A stretch of DNA of 63,724 bases, the filler included, from Licmophora abbreviata (Eukaryota): the NCBI GenBank assembly GCA_900291995.1. It is 12 parts of 12 records of this genome, joined end to end, with 100 filler letters (N's around TTAATTAATTAA, not from the genome) between each part and the next. Parts side by side here need not be neighbours in the genome. Positions count along the whole stretch, not along the records: positions 14,671 to 20,364 come from OLMU01000459.1; 11 more parts are not named here. One strand, written 5' to 3'. The notes under the pieces are model-generated. The model was not told the origin of the DNA, did not search any database, and was given only the letters and a program-made list of their open reading frames with translations. Shown piece after piece: positions 8,628 to 21,078 of this stretch (position 1 is the stretch's first letter; each line of letters opens with the position of its first letter). The position numbers and the translations under genes were made by a program.

Positions 8628-8727
8628 NNNNNNNNNNNNNNNNNNNNNNNNNNNNNNNNNNNNNNNNNNNNTTAATTAATTAANNNNNNNNNNNNNNNNN
8701 NNNNNNNNNNNNNNNNNNNNNNNNNNN
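8628..8727. other. Artificial contig spacer (N44-TTAATTAATTAA-N44); others at 14571, 20365, 26086, 29561, 39268, 48256, 54658, 56757, 59376 and 60864
   Basis: Identical 100-nt blocks containing a six-frame stop linker. Confidence 0.98.
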
Positions 8728-10345: not shown

Positions 10346-12360
10346 TTTCATCAGATACCAGGAACACGCGTTGGCTTGAATCCTCCTACCCACAACTACC
10401 CGCAGCACCACTTCCATCATGATCTTCCTCACTTTGAGGATGAACCGCGTTCACGCAACTCAATACCATCACGATCATCTCTCGAGTTTGATCATCGCTA
10501 TTCTGCCCCTTCTTCAGCCTATCCTACTGCCTCGAGTTCCTTTTGGAGTGACTCTCCCTACTCTTCCTCTGGGAGTTCCCTCACCATGGTACGAACCAAA
10601 CGACTCTTGCGCATGGTTCGATTCTGGTTGATCTTCTTTGGATTGGTCTTGTTCCTTGGTACGTCAATGGTCTTTCGCAACATGAAACATGAATCCAATA
10701 CTACAAGTAGTACCACGGAGAGCAAGTCGAATACAGTGGCATCCATGACGAACGGGACCAGCACCACGAAGGAACAAATATTCTTGATTCCTTTTCCAAA
10801 CGCAACACTGACAACACAGCCACCACCGAAAGGTCGAACGTTGAAACGCGTTGTCCAGCCTCTGGATGCACTCCCCAATCCAACCGTAGATAGTGTGAAA
10901 CGGACACTCGCGTCGTTGCAACGTGAGTTCCATGAATGGATGGCGACGCACCAGAAAGAGTACGCAAGCGAAGAAGAAAAAGACAAGCGATTCGGTATTT
11001 GGACGGAGAATCATCATCGGTGCGTTCTTGTCTCTTCCTTTGCGAAAGTCTACTTTTAGAACAGCCAAATTCAGACTCATGCTTCTTTCCTTCGTTCGTA
11101 CACAGCACCATTGCCAAGAATGAACGCCACGGTCCGTGCAAGTTGACTGGCGAACCTGTCTTTGGCTCGAACCACTTCAAAGACTTGTCGCCCTCGGAAT
11201 TTCAATCGCACTATCTCACGGGTTACAAGGGACCGCGGCATGATGACTTGTTGCGGCTTCAACAAAGGTCAAGGCATCACTTGCTCACCACCGATGAGTT
11301 GTTCCGACGACAGAGTACGACGCCGGTATACATGGCATCATCGTCAACAGCTGCAGCACCTCACTACATGTCAATTTCGGGGTGTGCATGGACGGACGTG
11401 TCGTGTTGGTTGCGATGGCTTGCAAAGAAGTTCTTGTATGGCATTGGCAGCACACTTGTACCAAATGGTTCCTATCCGGACTCGATCGATTGGCGGGACG
11501 CCAATGCGGTGACGCAAGTTCATTCGCAAGGCAATTGTGGTGCCTGTTGGGCCATTACGGCCGTGGAGACAGTCGAGAGTGCGTATGCCATGAAGAAGGG
11601 GGCCTTGGTGGACTTGGAAGAGTCGGAAGTTATCTTGTGCGATGATACGTGCGAAATGTGCGAAGGAGGGTGGCCGCAAAATGCATATGATTACATTATG
11701 GAACACAACGGACTCCCACTGGAGGATAACTGGTCTTATGATGGGGATGTATTGCTGGAATTGTCCATGATCAAGACGGGAGAGAGCAACTACGACGAGT
11801 CGTATTTGGAAAGTTACCAACAATCGTACTGTCCCAGTGGAGGCGGCAGCCATTCCGGGGACAACAGCGGGAGTAGCTACACCAGTGCGGCGCGGTACGG
11901 AAGCATTTCTGGCTACGGATATGCGACGGATCGATGTGTTTGCTACAGCGATGGAACGGGCTGCGACTGCGACGAACAGAGCGAAAAGCTCGCGTTGCGA
12001 AACATGGCGTCCTACGGGCCTGCGACGGTGTGTTTGGAAGCGTCGACTTGGCAGGACTATGCTGGTGGCATCATGACGTCCGATATTGGCTGCAGTCCGG
12101 GATTTCTCGATATGAATCATTGTGTGCAGGCGGTCGGATATGCGTTTATGGATCTGGATGACACAGACACCGAAGGGCAGCAGCAAGGCAGTGGGAGTGG
12201 CAGTGGAAGCCAAGGGAGTCAAGACGACGGGAATCGACAAGGGTACTGGATCGTCCGGAACCAATGGTCATCAAACTGGGGCATCAATGGATATGCCTAT
12301 GTTGCTATGGGCGACAACACCTGTGGTATATTGAACGACATGACGCAAGCCTACATGTAG
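10091..12360 (+). CDS. Papain-like (C1A) cysteine protease with N-terminal membrane anchor and I29 prodomain (intron 11020-11105)
   Basis: TM segment FWLIFFGLVLFLG and prodomain EFHEWM..KEY..EEEK.KRF.IW..N / NHFKDLSPSEF. Mature domain has IDWR, QGNCGACWA, NHCVQAVGY and YWIVRNQW..WG. Confidence 0.9.
10313..10343 (+). repeat. (TCG)n microsatellite encoding a poly-Ser run
   Basis: About ten tandem TCG units inside the protease N-terminal region. Confidence 0.85.
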
Positions 12361-12440
12361 ACGGGAAGTTACAATGATGACACGTTGTTAATTGCTAGAA
12401 TCATTGTTGTACTGCAAGCGATGTACCCAAGTTTCGGTGA

Positions 12441-13661
12441 TCATTTCCGAGGTCGGACTAGTTTGTCTTTGGCAATCATTTCGACGACTCTTCCCGCCGC
12501 CGCGAAGCCAAAGGACCCCGTCACAAAGCAAGCCGTCCCGAGGGCTCCATCGCATCTTCGAAACGATGATACGCCGTCGTCGGCCGGCAAACTGTTTGTC
12601 AGTTCCGTCGAGTACACAGCCGCGATCCCCCAGTTTCGAACACGCCTTTTGTTCATTTTCTTTTCTTGAAACGAAAGACCCCGCTTCAAAACCGTGCTGT
12701 TGTCGTAGGTTCTTTCGACAAGTCGCCAGCATTCGATCCGACGAGACGCGGGTCAAGTCGTCCACAACAATCTGGGTCGCATCTCGCTTTCCAGCTGCGC
12801 CGCCGCACGTGACGATTGGAATCTCTCGTTCCACGCATGCCGCTATCAATGCAGTCTTTTCCTTGGCGCCGTCAATCGCATCCAGACACACGGTAAGTTG
12901 AGGGAGCATGACGTCAAGAGTTGCGTGAACATTGTCCACCGTGACAAAGTCGAGTATTGTCGTCACGTTGCACTGAGGATTAATGTCCAGCAATCGTCTC
13001 TTCATTTCATCCACCTTCATTTGACCTATGCTTGACGACACAGCATGCAGCTGCCGGTTGGTATTGGAGATGCACACGTCGTCGGCGTCTACCAGTATGA
13101 CATTGCCCACGCCACTCCGCACTAACGCTTCGGCAGCCCAGGAACCGACCCCGCCAACTCCAATCACGCACACAGTCGCCCCATAGAGGCGGTCTACTAC
13201 AGCAAGATGCGGTTCTCGGTCGGCGTCGTTGCGAGAAGATTGGGGGTTGTCGTCATCCGTATCAGCGTATATTCTACAGAAGAATGTACGAGTTCGTAGA
13301 GCGATGAGTTTAGAGTCGCAAACTGAGAGTGCGTGCATCCTGCAGTGGTTCGATCGTCGATGTGTTCACTGTGGTCCTGCACTCACCTCCCTATTCCAGA
13401 GAATCGAGTATAGCGCTGTGATTCGATCATTTCTTGTTCATCGTCGGCCTCAGCGATGACCGGCATGCGCTGACCATCATTCATGGAATCATGGTGCTGC
13501 TGGTGCTGTGCTCGCTCATCATGACGGGTCGGCGGAAGATTGGCGCGTGAAACGACAAACGACGCAGACGCCAGTAAGAAGCTTCGTAATAAAATCACAA
13601 GAGCAAAAAGCAAACATGGGAAACGTAAGCCTCGCCTAAGACCAACCGATTGCCCTAGCAT
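12441..13661 (-). CDS. tcdA: ThiF/E1-like tRNA threonylcarbamoyladenosine dehydratase (TcdA-like), probably plastid-targeted; intron 13274-13386; apparent +1 frameshift near 12680
   Basis: RFSGIGR|IY, VIGVGGVGSWAAEALVRSG, DDVCISNTNRQLH, DAID, GGAAGKRD. The C-terminal VYSTE..CDGALGTACFVTGSFG lies in another frame. Signal peptide ends in ASASF. Confidence 0.85.
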
Positions 13662-14570: not shown

Positions 14571-14670
14571 NNNNNNNNNNNNNNNNNNNNNNNNNNNNNN
14601 NNNNNNNNNNNNNNTTAATTAATTAANNNNNNNNNNNNNNNNNNNNNNNNNNNNNNNNNNNNNNNNNNNN

Positions 14671-17280
14671 ACGGATCGCCCCTTTCTTCATTGTCGCCTC
14701 TTGCCGGCACAGAGTAGACGAGAATCGAAGAATTCATTTTGATATAGAACCTTCCCACTGGGATGGAATCGCTATATGGCACAAGACTGAAGCCATCGAC
14801 TTGGCTTCTGTTGTCCTGTAACGTCCACCTTCCAACGACCCGGAGCCTCTCATTTCCGTTCGGAGCACTCCACCACGCCATCTCAATTAGCTCGGTACGT
14901 GCAGGGCCGCCCGAAACAGCAAAAAGTCGGTCGCCCAAAGTTGCTAAGCCTTGTAGATGAACATCATTGATTCGAATGAGAGGCTCGACCTTGGCAGGCA
15001 CTGTCCCGTCGTCATTCATGGGCTGAATGTAAACGGACTCATTCGATGTCATGAGGAAGGAATGTCGATTGAAATCCACTACGAAAGAAGAAATACTTTC
15101 GTTGATAATCGTATTCGTTCGAATAACCTCCTGTGAACACTCCTCATATTCTTGACGTAAGACTTGAACAGGCGGTAGGGATCGTCGCAGTCTTCGATCC
15201 TTTTCTTCCTTTCCTGTAAAGGAGAAAATTTCCTTTCCAACGGAAAAGATATCATCTCCAGTGACCGAGTCTGCCCAAATGAGGAAAATGACAACTCCTA
15301 CCACTGATGTCAGAAAGATTGGATTGACTTTGTTGAAGTAGCCATAGGGTTCACGGTCTCGGAGAAGCTTTAGCCGGGCAAAGTACAGGTAGGTGGAGTA
15401 CACAACTAGACAAAGAGCCAAGAGAGATATGACCGCTGCAGTCGTCTTGAAGTGGTCGCCGGCTTTCAGCAAAAAAGCGGAGACAGAAAGTAGCAGAATC
15501 GAGGCACTGATCCACTGTACAAAAGTCCTTTCGTTTGCGAAATACGTTTTTGGCTCAATGCGAGCTGGATACTTCGGCGCAATCGCAACCCCTTCAGGTA
15601 AGATGCTAGAATCCGTTTCGTTTGACGATCCCATCAAGTTATATTCGCCTTGGAGCGCATCGTTCGAACTTGAGGAACGACTTGGAAGACCTCTTCGGTC
15701 AAGTTGAAAGAACGAGTAGAAAGCCGGATGAGCGGCCCAATATGGAAGCGTGGGTACAGCATTGAAAGCTGCTGCACCAGTTAGGAACTTCGAGAACTTG
15801 ACTGCCAGTATCATGGTAGAATCATCCTGGGCTTCTGCTAGTCCGGTCGGCATGGCACCGTCCTTCGCAAGTTTGACTTCAAATACATTGAAAGGAACTA
15901 CACACGAACGGGCCGTTTGCGCTTCCGAATCGGTCAGACACCATTGTCCCTCACTAAATTGCTGTAGTCGTTCGTTAACAACCGTGACGTTTCGATCAAG
16001 GGTAAGGCGCAGGTCTGGAGTGAATGTGACCAGCGAAGGCGTGTTAGAACGCGACATTCGAGTGCCATTGGCCCGGCCATGGCGAGCAACTCACCATTAC
16101 TTTTTGCAGACTGAAAGGCAGCCCGATCATATACGCTCCGAACGCAAGCAGTCAACTTATGCTTTACGACAAGATTGTGCATGCGGAGCAACAAATCGAT
16201 AGCGTTCGCGAGATCCTCTGGCTTCATTTTTGGCTTTGCGCGTAAGATCATCTCTCTTGCGTTGTGACTTTTCCAAGGGACTGGTGAAAGAAACTCGAGC
16301 ATATCTCTCTCTTGTATCAATGCCCTTTCCTTGACACTCTTGTTGCCAACCCATTTTTCATGGTGAGTCTTAAGTTCCACAAACATAATCTTGTCACCAG
16401 TGGGCATTGTGTTTCCATACCAGCGTACCCTTAGTAGCTTGGCCCCCTGGGCCCTTGCCAGCCTCTCTTTGTAGAGACTCATATCATCGGAATCGAAATA
16501 TATGGACGTAATTCGAGTTGCCAATGAGTCCCAAAGCTTATCACCATCGGATAGGTTTAGAGTGCTTGATTCCTTGGACGTCAATGGGCCCTTCATACCA
16601 TAGACTAGAAGAGGAGCTTCCGCGGCACAGGTCATCATCAACTTGGTCAAGTTTTCATCCTTCACCCAGTATTTGGTGGTAGATCGCTGAAAGGAAGAAG
16701 GCGCCTCCCAAAGAGTTTCGCCTCCGGCGTTGCCATGGTGGAGAATCTTTTCATGTGCCTGTCGCAGTGCATGATAGATATCGCTCACGACACATACCAA
16801 AGATGAGTTCAAATGTGCCTTGGGTAGACCTTCATGCAGCAACGGCGCGAACTCATAGGTAGGGCTAGGAAGTCTCTGGTCCGCTTTGACGGCAATCTCC
16901 GAGAGAATGTTGCGACCAAGCGTGTAAAAAGCTTGCAGGGCCAGGCAATCCTCGACCGCCTTCCGGGTCGACCGTTGGAGATAGCTCAGGGTGGTCTGGC
17001 TTTCAGGTACGATAGTTTCATCAGTGGCTAGAGCATCCGCTCTGAGGAAAAGAGTCTTGGCCGTCTGTTCCAGGCCTTCTTGTTGGATTTTCACAAACTC
17101 AGCGAGACGACGGAGCTCGCCTAGCAGGGTGGTGCGAAAGGGACGTCGGCTCCTCGTTGATACGAGTGTTCCGTCGACGACTTCGGATTGTAGTAGCTCT
17201 GTCTTCAATTTCTCTTCCGGTACCCTGTTGACATCCAAGGTGGAGAGAAAGTCGGAAGTTTCAGGGATGCCGTGGATCAT
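14671..17280 (-). CDS. VTC4-like polyphosphate polymerase: degenerate SPX-like region, VTC domain, DUF202 TM region, extra C-terminal domain (intron 16015-16094; 3' end in gap)
   Basis: FQRSTTKYWV, ITSIYFD, LYKERL, LLRVRWYG, FVELKTHHE, SVKER, YDRAAFQ, LRLTLDRNV, FEVKL, KFSKFLTG, IEPKTYFANERTF. Confidence 0.9.
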
Positions 17281-17630
17281 GCTTACGATTATTGTAAACA
17301 CTTTAGTTCAGGTCGCAGTGTGGTGGATAAAACTTGTCAATTCAGGGACCATGTTTGCGATTTGAGATGTGATTGTGACTTGTGACGCAGAAAAAGGCGT
17401 TGAGGGTGAGTGACCATTACTTATTGTCTTCAAGTTCATACCCAAGTGACATAAGTAATTTATTTATTCGACATTGAATCAATGAAACGCTCTCTGCCAA
17501 CGCATCCAACGGTCCATCCTCTGACGAGATTGCTCACAATTTGCTTCAACTTCAAAGAGAATTTCATAGAGAGGAGAAAATTGTCTCAACTCACCTTATT
17601 TTACTCAGCATTTGAGTTTGTTGATCGACG
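17281..17630. promoter_or_regulatory. Putative bidirectional promoter between the two VTC genes
   Basis: 350-bp AT-richer spacer between divergent ATGs, with clustered GTGA(C/T) motifs at ~17368-17450. Confidence 0.5.
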
Positions 17631-19095
17631 ATGAACATCCTAAACAATCTAAGATCCCGCAGATCTCCTCAGACGCTCGAAATGACGCTCATGTCTGGTG
17701 AGAGAAACGAGGAGGGAGGAGGAGAAAATCCCTCGCAGGTTCAGGTGGAGCCCAAGACGTATTTCGCTAACGAACGTACCTTCATTCAGTGGATCAGTGC
17801 GGCCTTGCTCTTGCTCACCGTATCCAGCGTTATGATGGGTAGTGGGAATTACAATGGGACGTCCAGTGTCATTGCATTCTCGTCGCTGGTCCTCGTCTGC
17901 TACGCGTCGTTTGTCTACTTCCGTCGAGTTCGGCTCTTGAGGTCGGGCAATGCCTACGGCTATCTCGATTTTGTCGGTCCTACCATTCTGGCGGTGGGAG
18001 TAGGCATTGGCGTCGCCATTGTCTTTGCGGACGCCGTCAAGGGAAGTGAGTTTCTTCCTTTTGGCAGTGAGGGCGAGGATGACGATCGGCGCTTCTTGGT
18101 GTCGCAATCGGTATCACCCGTTAAATTCCAGCAGGCACCCGAGATGCGCCCGGTCGAAGACATTTTCAAACTTCAAGAGGTGCATGGAAAATGTTCTCGC
18201 TATGCGATTGGTGGAATCAACCTCTTGGAGTATCAACCTCGTGACATCATTCTCAATGAGTACAACACCAAACAAGACTCTACCACTGGTCGCGAATTGA
18301 TCGTTGCCACGCCACAGGCCTTGGTTTCTCACCCTCTTCCGGAACGACGACAAGACCAAGCTACTTGTAGCACAATTCTATCCGAACTTCCCGACATGGA
18401 AATCGAGTCCATGATCATGGTGGGAGATAGACTCTTCGCCCTTTCTATTGGGCCCTTGAAGACGGAACTGATCGAATTCAGTGCTGCCAAGGAAATTCAG
18501 TCGACACACGTGATCCAAGACTCAACGAGTGCTTCCGGAAGCCTTGTTTTTGTGCCATCAAGTGACGAAAGTCGTGGAAAGCTATACATTTATCTCGATG
18601 GCACGATTCACACCTACCATTTGCTCCCCCACAACAACGAGTCTCCCTTGTCGCTCTCTCGCACCGGAACCATCAATATGAAAGTCATGAACCATGGTGG
18701 TCTTGACGATATCAACGATCCGATTACGGCCATGGAACATTTTGAAGGCCTCACGTATGTGTTGAGAGGAAATCGAAACATCATCGAAGCCTGGGATCTC
18801 CAGAGCGCGAGTCTTCTGGCCGAAATGCCGCTGCCAAGCGTCTCGGGTAATGACACATGGGTTGGAATGGCCTTTCAACGCCAAGACGAAGAGGAAGAAG
18901 GAGAACGATCTTCGCTACGTAAGCGCAAGATGGGTGCTACTTCAAGTGAAATGAAAACGAGCAAGCCTGTGTTCTTGCATATGCCGTTGGACTCTTTTCC
19001 TCCCCAGCTTTGGACTTTCCAGGCTGGAAAGACACGACGAAGGAAATGACGGTGATCGCAATGTTTTTAGCTTGCCTGAGTGTGATGGTGTGTAG
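17631..19095 (+). CDS. VTC1-like DUF202 protein with large C-terminal soluble domain; apparent +1 frameshift at ~19020
   Basis: VEPKTYFANERTFIQW plus 3 TM helices, and a C-terminal domain similar to that of the divergent VTC4-like gene (GDRLFA..GP..TELIE). Removing one C at ~19020 gives the end WTFRLERH..FSLPECDGV*. Confidence 0.85.
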
Positions 19096-19310
19096 ATGTA
19101 CTTTTGAGCGTGAGATGAAAAAGCAGTGACTGCTATTGTATAGCTAGTTCTGTAATTTTGTAAACACCAAGACGAAAGACCATGGCCTTGCTGTTCAATC
19201 AACTTTGTTAATCTTCACAAGGTGTGTCGTACAGACGACCCTATGTCGAAAGCGAATGCTACTGCATCGTCATGGATGCAGTGACTCGACTCGTGCCTCT
19301 GTTGTCGTTT

Positions 19311-20084
19311 CTAATGTTTCGCATGATCACCTCCCGACTGCGTGACAACTGCTTCTCCGACTTGGACAAAACTACCATTTTGTTGTTGCTGCTGCTGATG
19401 ATGATGATCTGAACTGTCGTGCTGATGTTGATGTTGTTGTTGTAACTGGGTATTGTATCGCTCAAAGCTATTTTCAAATTCGTCGAGCGATATCCCAATC
19501 GTTTCATAGTTTCCCTGCTGCGCCATGTACGTGAGTTCATCGCGTCCAATGGCAATCAACAAGGCCACGGCCGTATTGAGCCAAAAGATAATTCCACTCC
19601 AGAACCATATACCCACCATGGTCCCCCGATGGTCATCACAGAGCTCTGTAGCTGTATAATAATAGTAAGACTTTCGGTCTTCTTCTTCTTTGCTGTCGAC
19701 GTGAGTGGGACATTGCGACAATCGTCCAAAGTAAAGTGAGAGTACGAACGAGAGGATGGATCCACCGACGGCGATGCCGAGTGTGACGCCGAGCATAAAC
19801 TCCGACGGTGATAGCGCATGAAAGAAAGAGGAGTGCGGCAAGCGATTGTTGTTGAGTACAATCATGCTGATGATGTTCTGAGAACAGAGTAGGAAGGAAA
19901 TCAAGAGTGTATCTAGCCCGATATCGGGTACCACGGCGGCTTGAAAACAGGCAATGAAGAGAAAGAAATTGCAGACAACCATGGCTGTCAGCAAGTGATT
20001 TATTAATCTCGGAATGGAGTCATTGCGATGAAGAAAGGACAAGGAGTCTTGACAGTGTTGCGAGAGTGATTGGAGAGGTGACAT
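19311..20084 (-). CDS. Hypothetical protein with ~4 TM helices and Q/H-rich C-terminus
   Basis: Open frame with four hydrophobic segments and two Cys in the loop before the last TM. No family recognised. Confidence 0.65.
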   Translation of the reverse strand: MSPLQSLSQHCQDSLSFLHRNDSIPRLINHLLTAMVVCNFFLFIACFQAAVVPDIGLDTLLISFLLCSQNIISMIVLNNNRLPHSSFFHALSPSEFMLGVTLGIAVGGSILSFVLSLYFGRLSQCPTHVDSKEEEDRKSYYYYTATELCDDHRGTMVGIWFWSGIIFWLNTAVALLIAIGRDELTYMAQQGNYETIGISLDEFENSFERYNTQLQQQHQHQHDSSDHHHQQQQQQNGSFVQVGEAVVTQSGGDHAKH

Positions 20085-21078
20085 GATGATGTTGGGTCGA
20101 GTTCCGGGCGAGGTGCACAGCTCGTGTCTCTTTTCGATCCTGGCGATCTGGTCTGGCGCGGTTTTAAGACTCGGAAAAGGCAATCTAGAGGTCCCCTGAG
20201 AGAATGACCTAGTAGCAGTCAGCGAGAGCCTGTCGTTCGTCGCAGCGAGCGTCGATGCCGTCGTCGTCGTTCGTTCGAGAAATCATCGTCGCAATACTAC
20301 GAATGTGATGGATGTGGCGTTTGAGAGCGTGACGCCGTCGCGCGATATCTGAAGATGCATCGCGNNNNNNNNNNNNNNNNNNNNNNNNNNNNNNNNNNNN
20401 NNNNNNNNTTAATTAATTAANNNNNNNNNNNNNNNNNNNNNNNNNNNNNNNNNNNNNNNNNNNNATCACCGACTGCCCATAGAGAGGGTTATAGGGCTTT
20501 GTCGAAGGCAATATCAAGGCCATGGCGTTCGGCCCTTGGGAAGTTTTGCCAACAGTGGAGCATCGCGTTGAAAATGCCGTAGTTCAGTGAGTTTCTTGAA
20601 TAACTATCAAGAAACCCGTCAATGTATTAGTTCTGCATTGTCGCTGTGGGGGAGTTGACGCGTAGATAGAGACCGGAAGGCGAGAAACGCGGACAACGTC
20701 CCTTATTCTGTTTGTTAGTCGTTGAATGCATCACTCCTATTATGATTAGTCATGAGCTCAACAAACAAGTGCGCTTTCGTTTGAGCTGAGGTGCGTACCG
20801 GTATTATCTGAGTCCAAGTGGTGGCGCGAAGCAGCGTTCAAACCATTGAACATCTAATTATAAACGTTGCTGAGAGTTTTGTATGGTCGATTTTGTAGGT
20901 GTCAAGCTTTTGAGATGCCGCACACGCGACCACTACTCTTCGCTTTGGGAACAACGCCGAAGAGCACGACTGACGATCAAGGGATACCATTCCATTTCCA
21001 CTCATCTCATCATAGGATGGAGACAGACAGAATTCTGCTGGAGTTTCTGAAATTGTATTTATTCTTCTTTGGTGAGAA

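Follow-up and report, generated by a model that had tools for sequence, protein, structure and literature searches.

What is the function of two genes of the diatom Licmophora abbreviata that diverge from a common spacer, both encode subunits of the vacuolar transporter chaperone (VTC) type and both continue, past their transmembrane (TM) helices, into a long additional domain? These genes, denoted here A and B, come from a window of 63,724 nucleotides (the whole stretch of DNA that was analysed; assembly GCA_900291995.1) and sit on a single 5.7-kb contig (OLMU01000459.1, window positions 14671–20364). Many microbial eukaryotes store their phosphorus mainly as polyphosphate (polyP) made by VTC, and diatom polyP matters for marine phosphorus cycling; to our knowledge, studies of VTC structure and mechanism have all been done on the yeast complex, in which the subunits hardly extend into the lumen. 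The results presented here suggest that the locus encodes a seemingly undescribed VTC variant, in which the catalytic as well as the channel subunit is extended by a putative luminal YjiK-like propeller and the SPX domain is degenerate.

A VTC4-type and a VTC1-type gene arranged head to head

Genes A (minus strand) and B (plus strand) lie head to head, and their start codons are separated by a spacer of 350 bp (17281–17630) that presumably contains a shared promoter region. The initial annotation described a catalytic-type VTC gene and a DUF202-only gene diverging from this spacer, and the open reading frames (ORFs), the splice model and the Pfam matches all bear out this layout, along with the assignment of gene A to the catalytic type and of gene B to the VTC1 type.

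The coding region of gene A consists of two exons on the minus strand. Exon 1 (16095–17280; ATG at 17280; 395 codons plus 1 nt) encodes a predicted SPX fold and most of the TTM/VTC tunnel; after an intron of 80 nt (16015–16094, minus strand, GTGAGT...CAG, phase 1), exon 2 (14671–16014) completes the TTM domain and continues through a linker and the three TM helices (DUF202) into the C-terminal tail, of which it covers the first ~155 aa. The splice junction, with ...SAKSN before and DLRLTLDRNV after it, agrees with the transcript-derived homologues P0076–P0078, and the homology of the metagenomic ORFs P0036, P0037 and P0045 stops exactly before DLRLTLD, which supports the intron. The N-terminus MIHGIPETSDFLSTLDVNRV agrees with the transcript-derived diatom homologue P0076 (1003 aa). 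A mini-ORF in the spacer (MKFSLKLKQ...) was considered as a lost SPX exon and rejected, given that the transcript-derived homologues begin like the ATG at 17280. The gene is open at the contig end: it yields 843 aa without a stop codon, full-length relatives comprise 990–1150 aa, and ~160 aa are missing.

The Pfam VTC profile (PF09359) matches exon 1 with an E-value of 4.3e-31 and exon 2 with 1.4e-6, the two matches jointly covering profile positions 1–234 of 235, and DUF202 is detected with an E-value of 4e-11. In the AlphaFold2 (AF2) model of exon 1, with a predicted local distance difference test score (pLDDT) of 87.6, the TTM domain matches the PDB entries 3g3q and 3g3r with VIA-align Z-scores of 12.6–12.7. 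Nine residues of yeast Vtc4 bind Mn-triphosphate, E426 by chelating Mn, and mutating them (eight were tested) lowers cellular polyP; in the inactive Vtc2 and Vtc3, K458 alone among the nine is replaced, by I522 and L527, respectively (bioRxiv 10.1101/2023.01.27.525886). In phmmer alignments with yeast Vtc4 (8i6v_E), all nine (K200, R264, R266, K281, Y359, R361, E426, S457 and K458, in 8i6v_E numbering) are identical in gene A, and each is invariant or at least 90% conserved across 37 A-type sequences. Because the complete set is kept, K458 included, gene A appears, by its sequence, to encode a catalytically competent subunit of the Vtc4 type; synthesis of polyP from ATP would be its presumed activity. 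The TM region (15269–15550, minus strand; DUF202, three TM helices; aligned to residues 608–704 of 8i6v_E) contains an EPK...ER motif that aligns to residues 620–629 of 8i6v_E and keeps the equivalents of Vtc4 K622 and R629.

Gene B (17631–19095, plus strand) has DUF202 as its only Pfam match (1e-7). Its TM region (17754–18041, plus strand) comprises three helices within residues 42–137 (42–70, 75–105 and 115–137 in the AF2 model), and its N-terminus agrees with the family consensus. The polyP channel has two rings of basic residues, contributed by K622 and R629 in Vtc4 and by K24 and R31 in Vtc1 (bioRxiv 10.1101/2023.01.27.525886); in the alignment to 8i6v_A, gene B keeps K/R equivalents of both Vtc1 residues, and the pore-ring motif EPKTYFANERTF is common to genes A and B. 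Gene B is of the VTC1 type. It is not a small DUF202-only protein, given its length of at least 472 aa, with a ~290-aa predicted propeller beyond the third TM helix (TM3), compared to 129 aa in yeast Vtc1.

The 3' end of gene B requires comment. The assembled ORF (17631–19049, 472 aa) stops short of the conserved last 15–25 aa of the family (...FSLPECDGV*), which are encoded only in the +1 frame; the stop codon of that frame, at 19095, coincides with the end coordinate of the initial annotation. The change of frame amounts to 1 nt within TTTCCAGG (19016–19023, plus strand) and is either an assembly error or a real lesion. If the lesion is real, decay would affect gene B or else the entire locus of this organism, and gene B would be a pseudogene that has lost the conserved FxFPxC C-terminus. 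We regard such decay as very unlikely: the remainder of the gene is an uninterrupted ORF of 472 codons with 65–72% identity to its orthologues and all family-invariant residues, and the +1 frame downstream still encodes the conserved motif up to the stop codon. Four marine metagenome runs contain the source organism only as unitigs of 151–307 nt at a depth of ~2–3, none of which spans the frame-change site or lengthens the contig (the only one nearby begins at 19032); with such a fragmentary assembly and low depth, a 1-nt error is likely. No RNA run was found to contain the locus.

The shared C-terminal tail: a predicted five-bladed propeller

The yeast subunits stop ~10–17 residues past TM3 (8i6v alignments; Vtc4, 721 aa; Vtc1, 129 aa), so that the diatom tails, at ~330 residues, are extra, as had been proposed. 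The two tails are also homologous, as the initial annotation assumed: a BLASTP comparison of exon 2 of gene A with gene B yields an E-value of 5e-42 (31% identity over 313 aa of TM region and tail), and the tails alone yield 4e-11, in an alignment that includes the motifs on which that assumption was based; chance does not explain such a resemblance. The extra domain is thus present in both genes, although not in full in either as assembled: the tail of gene A is represented by its N-terminal part only (14672–15136, minus strand, beginning at a conserved cysteine in YEECSQ) and that of gene B (18186–19095, plus strand; residues ~186–470 and onward) changes frame near 19016–19023.

Pfam finds nothing in either tail of the window. 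An AF2 model of gene B, built from a 57-row alignment with a mean pLDDT of 77.8, consists of three TM helices, a disordered linker (residues 146–178) and 20 strands (188–465) mostly with pLDDT above 90. A VIA-align search with this predicted model against 48,161 PDB representatives sets three structures clearly above all others: the glutaminyl cyclase from Xanthomonas (3mbr; Z 21.0, root mean square deviation (rmsd) 3.0, 213 residues aligned), the C-terminal domain of Escherichia coli YjiK (3qqz; Z 21.0, rmsd 2.7 Å, 214 of 243 residues aligned) and the glutaminyl cyclase from Myxococcus (3nok; Z 20.1). GH43 enzymes come next, with Z-scores of at most 17.1, and further down the list are a Bacillus beta-propeller phytase (15.3) and a Ca-activated nucleotidase (14.1). 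In the Foldseek ranking, 3mbr comes first and 3qqz, with a target-normalised TM-score of 0.61, fourth. All top structural neighbours are five-bladed propellers, which lends substance to the earlier suggestion of a perhaps propeller-like domain.

Sequence comparisons point to YjiK among these neighbours. When 17 tails were compared with Pfam, SdiA-regulated (PF06977) was detected below threshold in three (best E-value 0.0032; the tail from the window has no match) and Phytase-like in one; Glu_cyclase_2 (PF05096) matches none of the 17 at E≤10, so that only the fold is common with glutaminyl cyclases. In hhalign comparisons with E. coli YjiK, two alignments of the tail score 68% (A4) and 83% (A8; E-value 9.5e-6, 154 columns), and the inner-strand motifs (D.E..,.EG.A and.WEG.A) are in register with those of YjiK. 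As a lead only, all named clusters listed among the language-model neighbours of the tail of L002, a relative from the metagenomes, belong to PF06977 and/or PF13449 (scores 0.91–0.94); a search of the same kind with the tail from the window, likewise a lead, gave low recognition (1668) and a mixture of propeller families. A tail-profile search of PDB sequences recovered neither YjiK nor glutaminyl cyclase; its best match, to yeast Hir2 (E-value 2e-4, 150 columns), was set aside as a generic propeller resemblance and was followed by kinase and dehydrogenase noise. On the strength of the models and profile comparisons, we conclude that the tail is probably a divergent member of the superfamily of YjiK/SdiA-regulated (phytase-like) propellers that falls short of formal Pfam membership.

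The tails also have a characteristic pattern of cysteines. Exactly two are present in 92 of 114 tails, one at the first strand and the other in a C-terminal P.C motif that lies within 30 aa of the C-terminus in 99 of the 114, and both are lost together in P0043 and P0078, the closest relatives of gene A. Such a pattern would be expected if a disulfide held the propeller closed.

Distribution and phylogeny of the family

A tail-only profile (A3) run against 1.84 billion representatives identifies 196 clusters at E≤1e-3, 166 at E≤1e-10 and 111 at E≤1e-30; in each of the 150 matches listed, the tail lies at the C-terminus. All 11 named sources are diatoms, both centric and pennate (ranging from the centric genera Coscinodiscus and Skeletonema as far as raphid pennates): Attheya septentrionalis, Attheya sp., Amphora coffeaeformis, Nitzschia sp., Cylindrotheca fusiformis, C. 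closterium, Seminavis robusta, Tryblionella compressa, Skeletonema menzelii, Coscinodiscus wailesii and a Bacillariaceae metagenome-assembled genome. The names given to these proteins in databases, such as “Vacuolar transporter chaperone 4” in Seminavis, “SPX domain-containing protein” in Cylindrotheca and “YidH (DUF202)”, are uninformative.

For phylogenetic analysis, rows were classified as A-type or B-type by the TM1 motif and by the presence of the catalytic motif FSKF upstream; rows that could not be classified (12), rows in which fewer than 400 aa follow TM1 and near-duplicates (nine) were removed, which left 116 rows spanning TM region and tail (77 A-type and 39 B-type). In the FastTree phylogeny, the clade that includes gene A (11 rows) is the sister of the clade that includes gene B (29 rows), with a support of 94. 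A quick IQ-TREE search with 64 rows recovers the A clade (11 rows) and the B clade (20 rows) with Shimodaira–Hasegawa-like approximate likelihood ratio test (SH-aLRT) values of 100 and 99, respectively. As sister clades, they give the two genes of the locus each other's closest TM-plus-propeller modules, and an inverted duplication within the locus is the probable origin of the pair.

Such pairs appear to recur. Four further combinations of a B-type and an A-type gene (P0015/P0041, P0014/P0042, P0022/P0045 and P0001/P0051) each share a source and the size of their longest contig (5,681, 8,263, 8,826 and 258,999 bp, respectively); the contig of 5.7 kb is so short that its two genes must be adjacent. 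The three A partners of sufficient length for the tree belong to the A clade of the window, and their B partners to the B clade. With respect to pairing across diatoms, these cases, which appear to share a contig, speak for recurrence; against its generality stands L001, a metagenomic locus where a distant A-type gene (984-aa ORF) has no B-type gene within 1.2 kb upstream.

These data bear on whether the two proteins cooperate at all. They could be relics of an inverted duplication, with gene B serving a canonical SPX-containing Vtc4 or another paralogue, gene A using a short Vtc1, and the layout devoid of regulatory meaning. Diatoms indeed also own canonical VTC subunits with differing localisations (Table 1 of PMC7283521), L001 lacks the partner gene, and the spacer (17281–17630) contains none of the matches to GNATATNC that were sought there. 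This sequence we take to be a P1BS-like phosphate-starvation motif, from plant PHR1 work. It is, however, precisely these two sister clades that pair again on four other contigs, as far as contig sizes indicate, and both clades keep the propeller along with the same substitutions of inner-strand glutamates (e.g., E259 to Q in both; see below), so that we consider a lack of cooperation unlikely.

A scan of metagenome loci with a B-type alignment adds little to this distribution: among the best 80 of 284 confirmed loci, the tail occurs in L001 and L002 alone, all others being generic DUF202/VTC loci. In L001 (L001:6891–9779, plus strand, and L001:4301–5794, minus strand), the A-type gene is followed by two ORFs, one with a weakly matching FHA domain (E-value 4.7e-5) and the other, of 962 aa, with a PiggyBac-like DDE_Tnp_1_7 transposase domain (7.8e-18).

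Outside the clades of the window, six VTC1-type rows that lack a catalytic domain (P0125_B, P0142_B, P0044_B, P0188_B, P0040_B and P0159_B) each adjoin a different VTC4-type row in the tree. Five of the six do so at SH-aLRT 95–100, four as direct sisters and P0040 within a small A-type group, and P0159 sits at a fork that the tree does not resolve. This placement would mean either that A-type genes gave rise to B-type genes more than once or that some of the six rows are pieces of A-type genes whose prediction began behind an intron. The L002 ORF (L002:88–1653) is complete and preceded by an in-frame stop codon, so that at least one such VTC1-type row is probably genuine.

Loss of inner-strand glutamates in the clades of the window

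Does the propeller have an enzymatic activity? Four inner-strand glutamates, aligned with those of YjiK, are conserved across the rest of the family (gene B numbering). Position 259 is E in 62 of the 76 remaining rows, Q in 26 of the 29 rows of the B clade, and Q or R in nine of the 11 rows of the A clade. At position 303, E (61/76) gives way to G in the entire B clade (29/29) and to D or N in the A clade (9/11); at position 411, E (61/76) is replaced by V or A (27/29) and by T or K (9/11), respectively. Position 372 is E throughout (65/76, 26/29 and 10/11). Thus, the clades of the window retain only E372 and have substituted the other three glutamates. Basic and polar residues are conserved throughout, namely R267, K351, R417, R430, H450, N349 and D454.

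One could picture the propeller as a luminal enzyme: a phytase-like/SdiA-regulated phosphoesterase or polyphosphatase that depends on Ca2+ and shortens polyP as it is made, or else a glutaminyl cyclase. The structural neighbours listed above are compatible with such an enzyme, with glutaminyl cyclases at Z-scores of 21.0 and 20.1, the phytase at 15.3 and the nucleotidase at 14.1; so are the four E-G motifs that the wider family conserves in alignment with YjiK (E in 61–65 of 76 rows) and the Pfam label “Phytase-like” on neighbouring clusters. A common fold does not establish function, though, Glu_cyclase_2 matches none of the 17 tails compared, and the replaced glutamates (positions 259, 303 and 411) would, if they form a metal or substrate site, leave that site largely lost here. 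An enzyme is therefore, in our estimate, decidedly improbable, and the propellers of the window pair most likely act non-catalytically, to judge from the glutamates that they have lost; the earlier idea that the luminal domains process polyP finds no favour in this sub-lineage.

A putative degenerate SPX domain in gene A

In gene A, Pfam detects no SPX domain at E≤1. The AF2 model of exon 1 nevertheless contains six helices within residues 8–180 that superpose on SPX domains, and these place a putative divergent SPX-fold domain at residues ~12–180 (16741–17247, minus strand). The VIA-align match to yeast Vtc4 (5lnc_A) has a Z-score of 11.2 and an rmsd of 2.3 Å over 162 aligned residues, where a Z-score below 13 is weak for helical bundles; XPR1 and rice SPX1 match at 11.2–11.4, and the matches are collinear and at the expected position.

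The characteristic sequence features of the domain are largely gone. Both the MKFG start and the lysine run KI(L/I)KKHDK are absent from all nine diatom A-type rows and present in all five fungal Vtc4 rows. Of the Vtc4 lysines K129, K132, K133 and K136, only K133 is kept in gene A, and K137 aligns with an arginine. From these substitutions we infer that gene A retains an SPX fold that has probably given up the canonical mode of inositol-pyrophosphate binding, and the loss of the lysine patch suggests that the enzyme would be regulated unlike the canonical one. The same loss may also account for the fact that the Phaeodactylum proteins named Vtc2 and Vtc3 localise unlike Vtc1 and Vtc4.

Membrane topology and a model of the complex

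On which side of the membrane would the propellers lie? In yeast VTC, the N-terminal domains are cytosolic, and a cytosolic N-terminus followed by an odd number of TM helices would put the C-terminal tail in the lumen. A luminal position of the tail would agree with three observations taken together: the VTC topology, the two near-invariant cysteines, and an N-G-T sequon in the loop between TM1 and TM2 of gene B, whose N75, T77 and S78 are invariant or nearly so in 29 B-type rows. The linker that joins TM3 and the propeller contains, ~15 residues past TM3, a D-R-R-x-L motif in both clades of the window (18066–18101, residues ~146–157, in gene B; 15196–15210 in gene A), with R153 near-invariant and R154 invariant in the 29 B-type rows; the motif is absent in other clades, e.g., in P0093 from Seminavis. 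At the pore exit, these basic residues could contact polyP.

The observations as a whole are, with moderate confidence, best explained by a pair of diatom-specific paralogous VTC subunits that co-assemble and carry luminal propellers. Genes A and B would form a VTC-like pentamer, in which a flexible linker of ~45 residues after TM3 tethers each five-bladed propeller, so that the propellers surround the luminal exit of the pore, in the vacuole or an acidocalcisome-like compartment. There they might bind or organise the emerging polyP or counter-cations such as Ca2+, or else scaffold or gate the complex, a role that would be functionally analogous to that of LtVBP2, the separate luminal partner of VTC in Leishmania. 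The hetero-oligomer, the ring of luminal domains and the co-regulation envisaged in the initial annotation are presumptive, and a connection with the cell surface or the silica deposition vesicle, also raised there, is speculative.

Several points weigh against this explanation. The case for co-assembly is drawn only from the homology to yeast Vtc4 and Vtc1 and from the gene neighbourhood, and five propellers of ~290 aa each may make a steric demand at the exit of one pentamer. The propeller itself is a prediction, and its kinship with YjiK supplies no mechanism. In this assembly, gene A is missing its last ~160 aa, and the frame change of gene B removes the last strand and the conserved cysteine, so that gene B could be a pseudogene here. 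The union of the A and B clades has an SH-aLRT value of 90 in the 64-row tree, which is moderate; in the four other pairs, orientation and adjacency are derived from contig sizes; and the A-type gene of L001 stands without a B-type neighbour. Complex prediction for the two tails of a same-contig pair (P0042, residues 278–605, with P0014, residues 200–539) gave a score of 0.00, which speaks neither for nor against.

A bolder and doubtful extension of the co-assembly model would make the pair a second, mechanistically distinct diatom polyP synthase that is uncoupled from inositol-pyrophosphate control by the degeneration of its SPX domain. Its luminal YjiK/CarP-like propellers, present on all subunits and acquired from bacteria, would form a chamber where the pore opens, capture nascent polyP there with Ca2+, and nucleate or shape polyP-cation granules or hand polyP to a specialised compartment; the VBP2 of kinetoplastids would then be convergent.

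Other features of the contig and the window

The window (1–63724) is not one molecule: it consists of 12 short contigs joined by linkers of the form N44-TTAATTAATTAA-N44 (8628–8727, 14571–14670, 20365–20464 and eight more), so that genes across a linker are not neighbours, and ORF frames that cross linkers show runs of X. Downstream of gene B, on the same contig, lies an ORF of 257 aa (19311–20084, minus strand) with several hydrophobic helices and a Gln/His-rich C-terminus, for which no Pfam match is found at E≤0.01. The neighbouring contig contains an ORF of the ThiF family (E1-like, NAD/FAD-binding fold; 12388–13338, minus strand; Pfam ThiF 1.8e-31) that has no relation to the gene pair. 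In the whole window, the palindrome-like GNATATNC occurs at 19 sites (e.g., 11917, 12136 and 12289), compared to 8.4 ± 2.9 expected, a count reached in none of 100 shuffles; three copies of GGATATGC lie within 400 bp of each other at 11917–12296.

Comparison with known systems

The diatom pair resembles yeast VTC (7ytj, 8i6v) in the order of domains in gene A (predicted SPX fold, TTM tunnel and three TM helices), in the three-TM DUF202 protein encoded by gene B, in the complete set of nine triphosphate/Mn-binding residues and in both basic rings of the pore. It differs in the tails of ~330 residues that are predicted to form a propeller, in an SPX domain without MKFG and with one of the four lysines, and in that no subunit of the Vtc2/3/5 type is seen at the diatom locus.

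Closer counterparts may exist in Phaeodactylum tricornutum, where PtVtc1 and PtVtc2 are described as DUF202 proteins, PtVtc3 as CYTH plus DUF202 without SPX, and PtVtc4 as SPX plus CYTH; PtVtc2 is found at abutting vacuolar membranes and PtVtc3 in foci, a localisation that differs from that of PtVtc1 and PtVtc4 (Dell'Aquila et al. 2020, PMC7283521). At the level of Pfam, PtVtc3 and PtVtc2 have the same description as genes A and B, and by this comparison, which is one of descriptions only, they may be the Phaeodactylum counterparts of the pair. The accessible text of that paper mentions no C-terminal domain for the PtVtc subunits, and the accessible parts of a 2025 review of the microalgal polyP polymerase (PMC12526157), an evolutionary essay (PMC10657179) and Zhang et al. 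2021 (PMC8233357) likewise mention none. More generally, full-text searches, subscription-only papers and supplements excepted, turned up no account of algal VTC subunits with a luminal or otherwise C-terminal domain. The architecture thus appears as novel as the initial annotation proposed with respect to that literature, although not with respect to databases, where such proteins are already deposited as “Vacuolar transporter chaperone 4” or “SPX domain-containing protein”.

Bacterial YjiK/SdiA-regulated proteins are membrane-anchored and extracytoplasmic. The likeness of the tail to YjiK (3qqz, PF06977) consists in the five-bladed fold and the aligned inner-strand E-G motifs; the differences are an identity of ~14–23%, the lack of a significant Pfam score for any tail, the fusion to a eukaryotic polyP synthase, the conserved pair of cysteines and, in the clades of the window, the loss of three of the four glutamates. 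Within the SdiA-regulated family, CarP from Pseudomonas aeruginosa is a Ca2+-regulated propeller whose mutants are disturbed in Ca2+ homeostasis (PMC10574481). The glutaminyl cyclases (3mbr and 3nok; PF05096) have the same five-bladed fold as the diatom tail and no sequence signal in common with it.

The nearest functional parallel is LtVBP2, a VTC-binding protein from Leishmania tarentolae that spans the membrane once and whose lumenal propeller, of six blades, is predicted to contact the lumenal end of TMH3 of Vtc4 (PMC13375126). Like the diatom tails as modelled here, it brings a beta-propeller into physical association with VTC on the lumenal side; unlike them, it is a separate single-pass protein with six blades, whereas the diatom propeller is fused to the subunits, and the likeness is one of description. 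By this analogy, LtVBP2 is independent support for the notion that luminal propellers belong to VTC biology. The propeller-bearing subunits found across diatoms parallel this partner, just reported for the VTC of kinetoplastids, and provide a concrete handle on the fate of the polyP chain as it leaves the pore.

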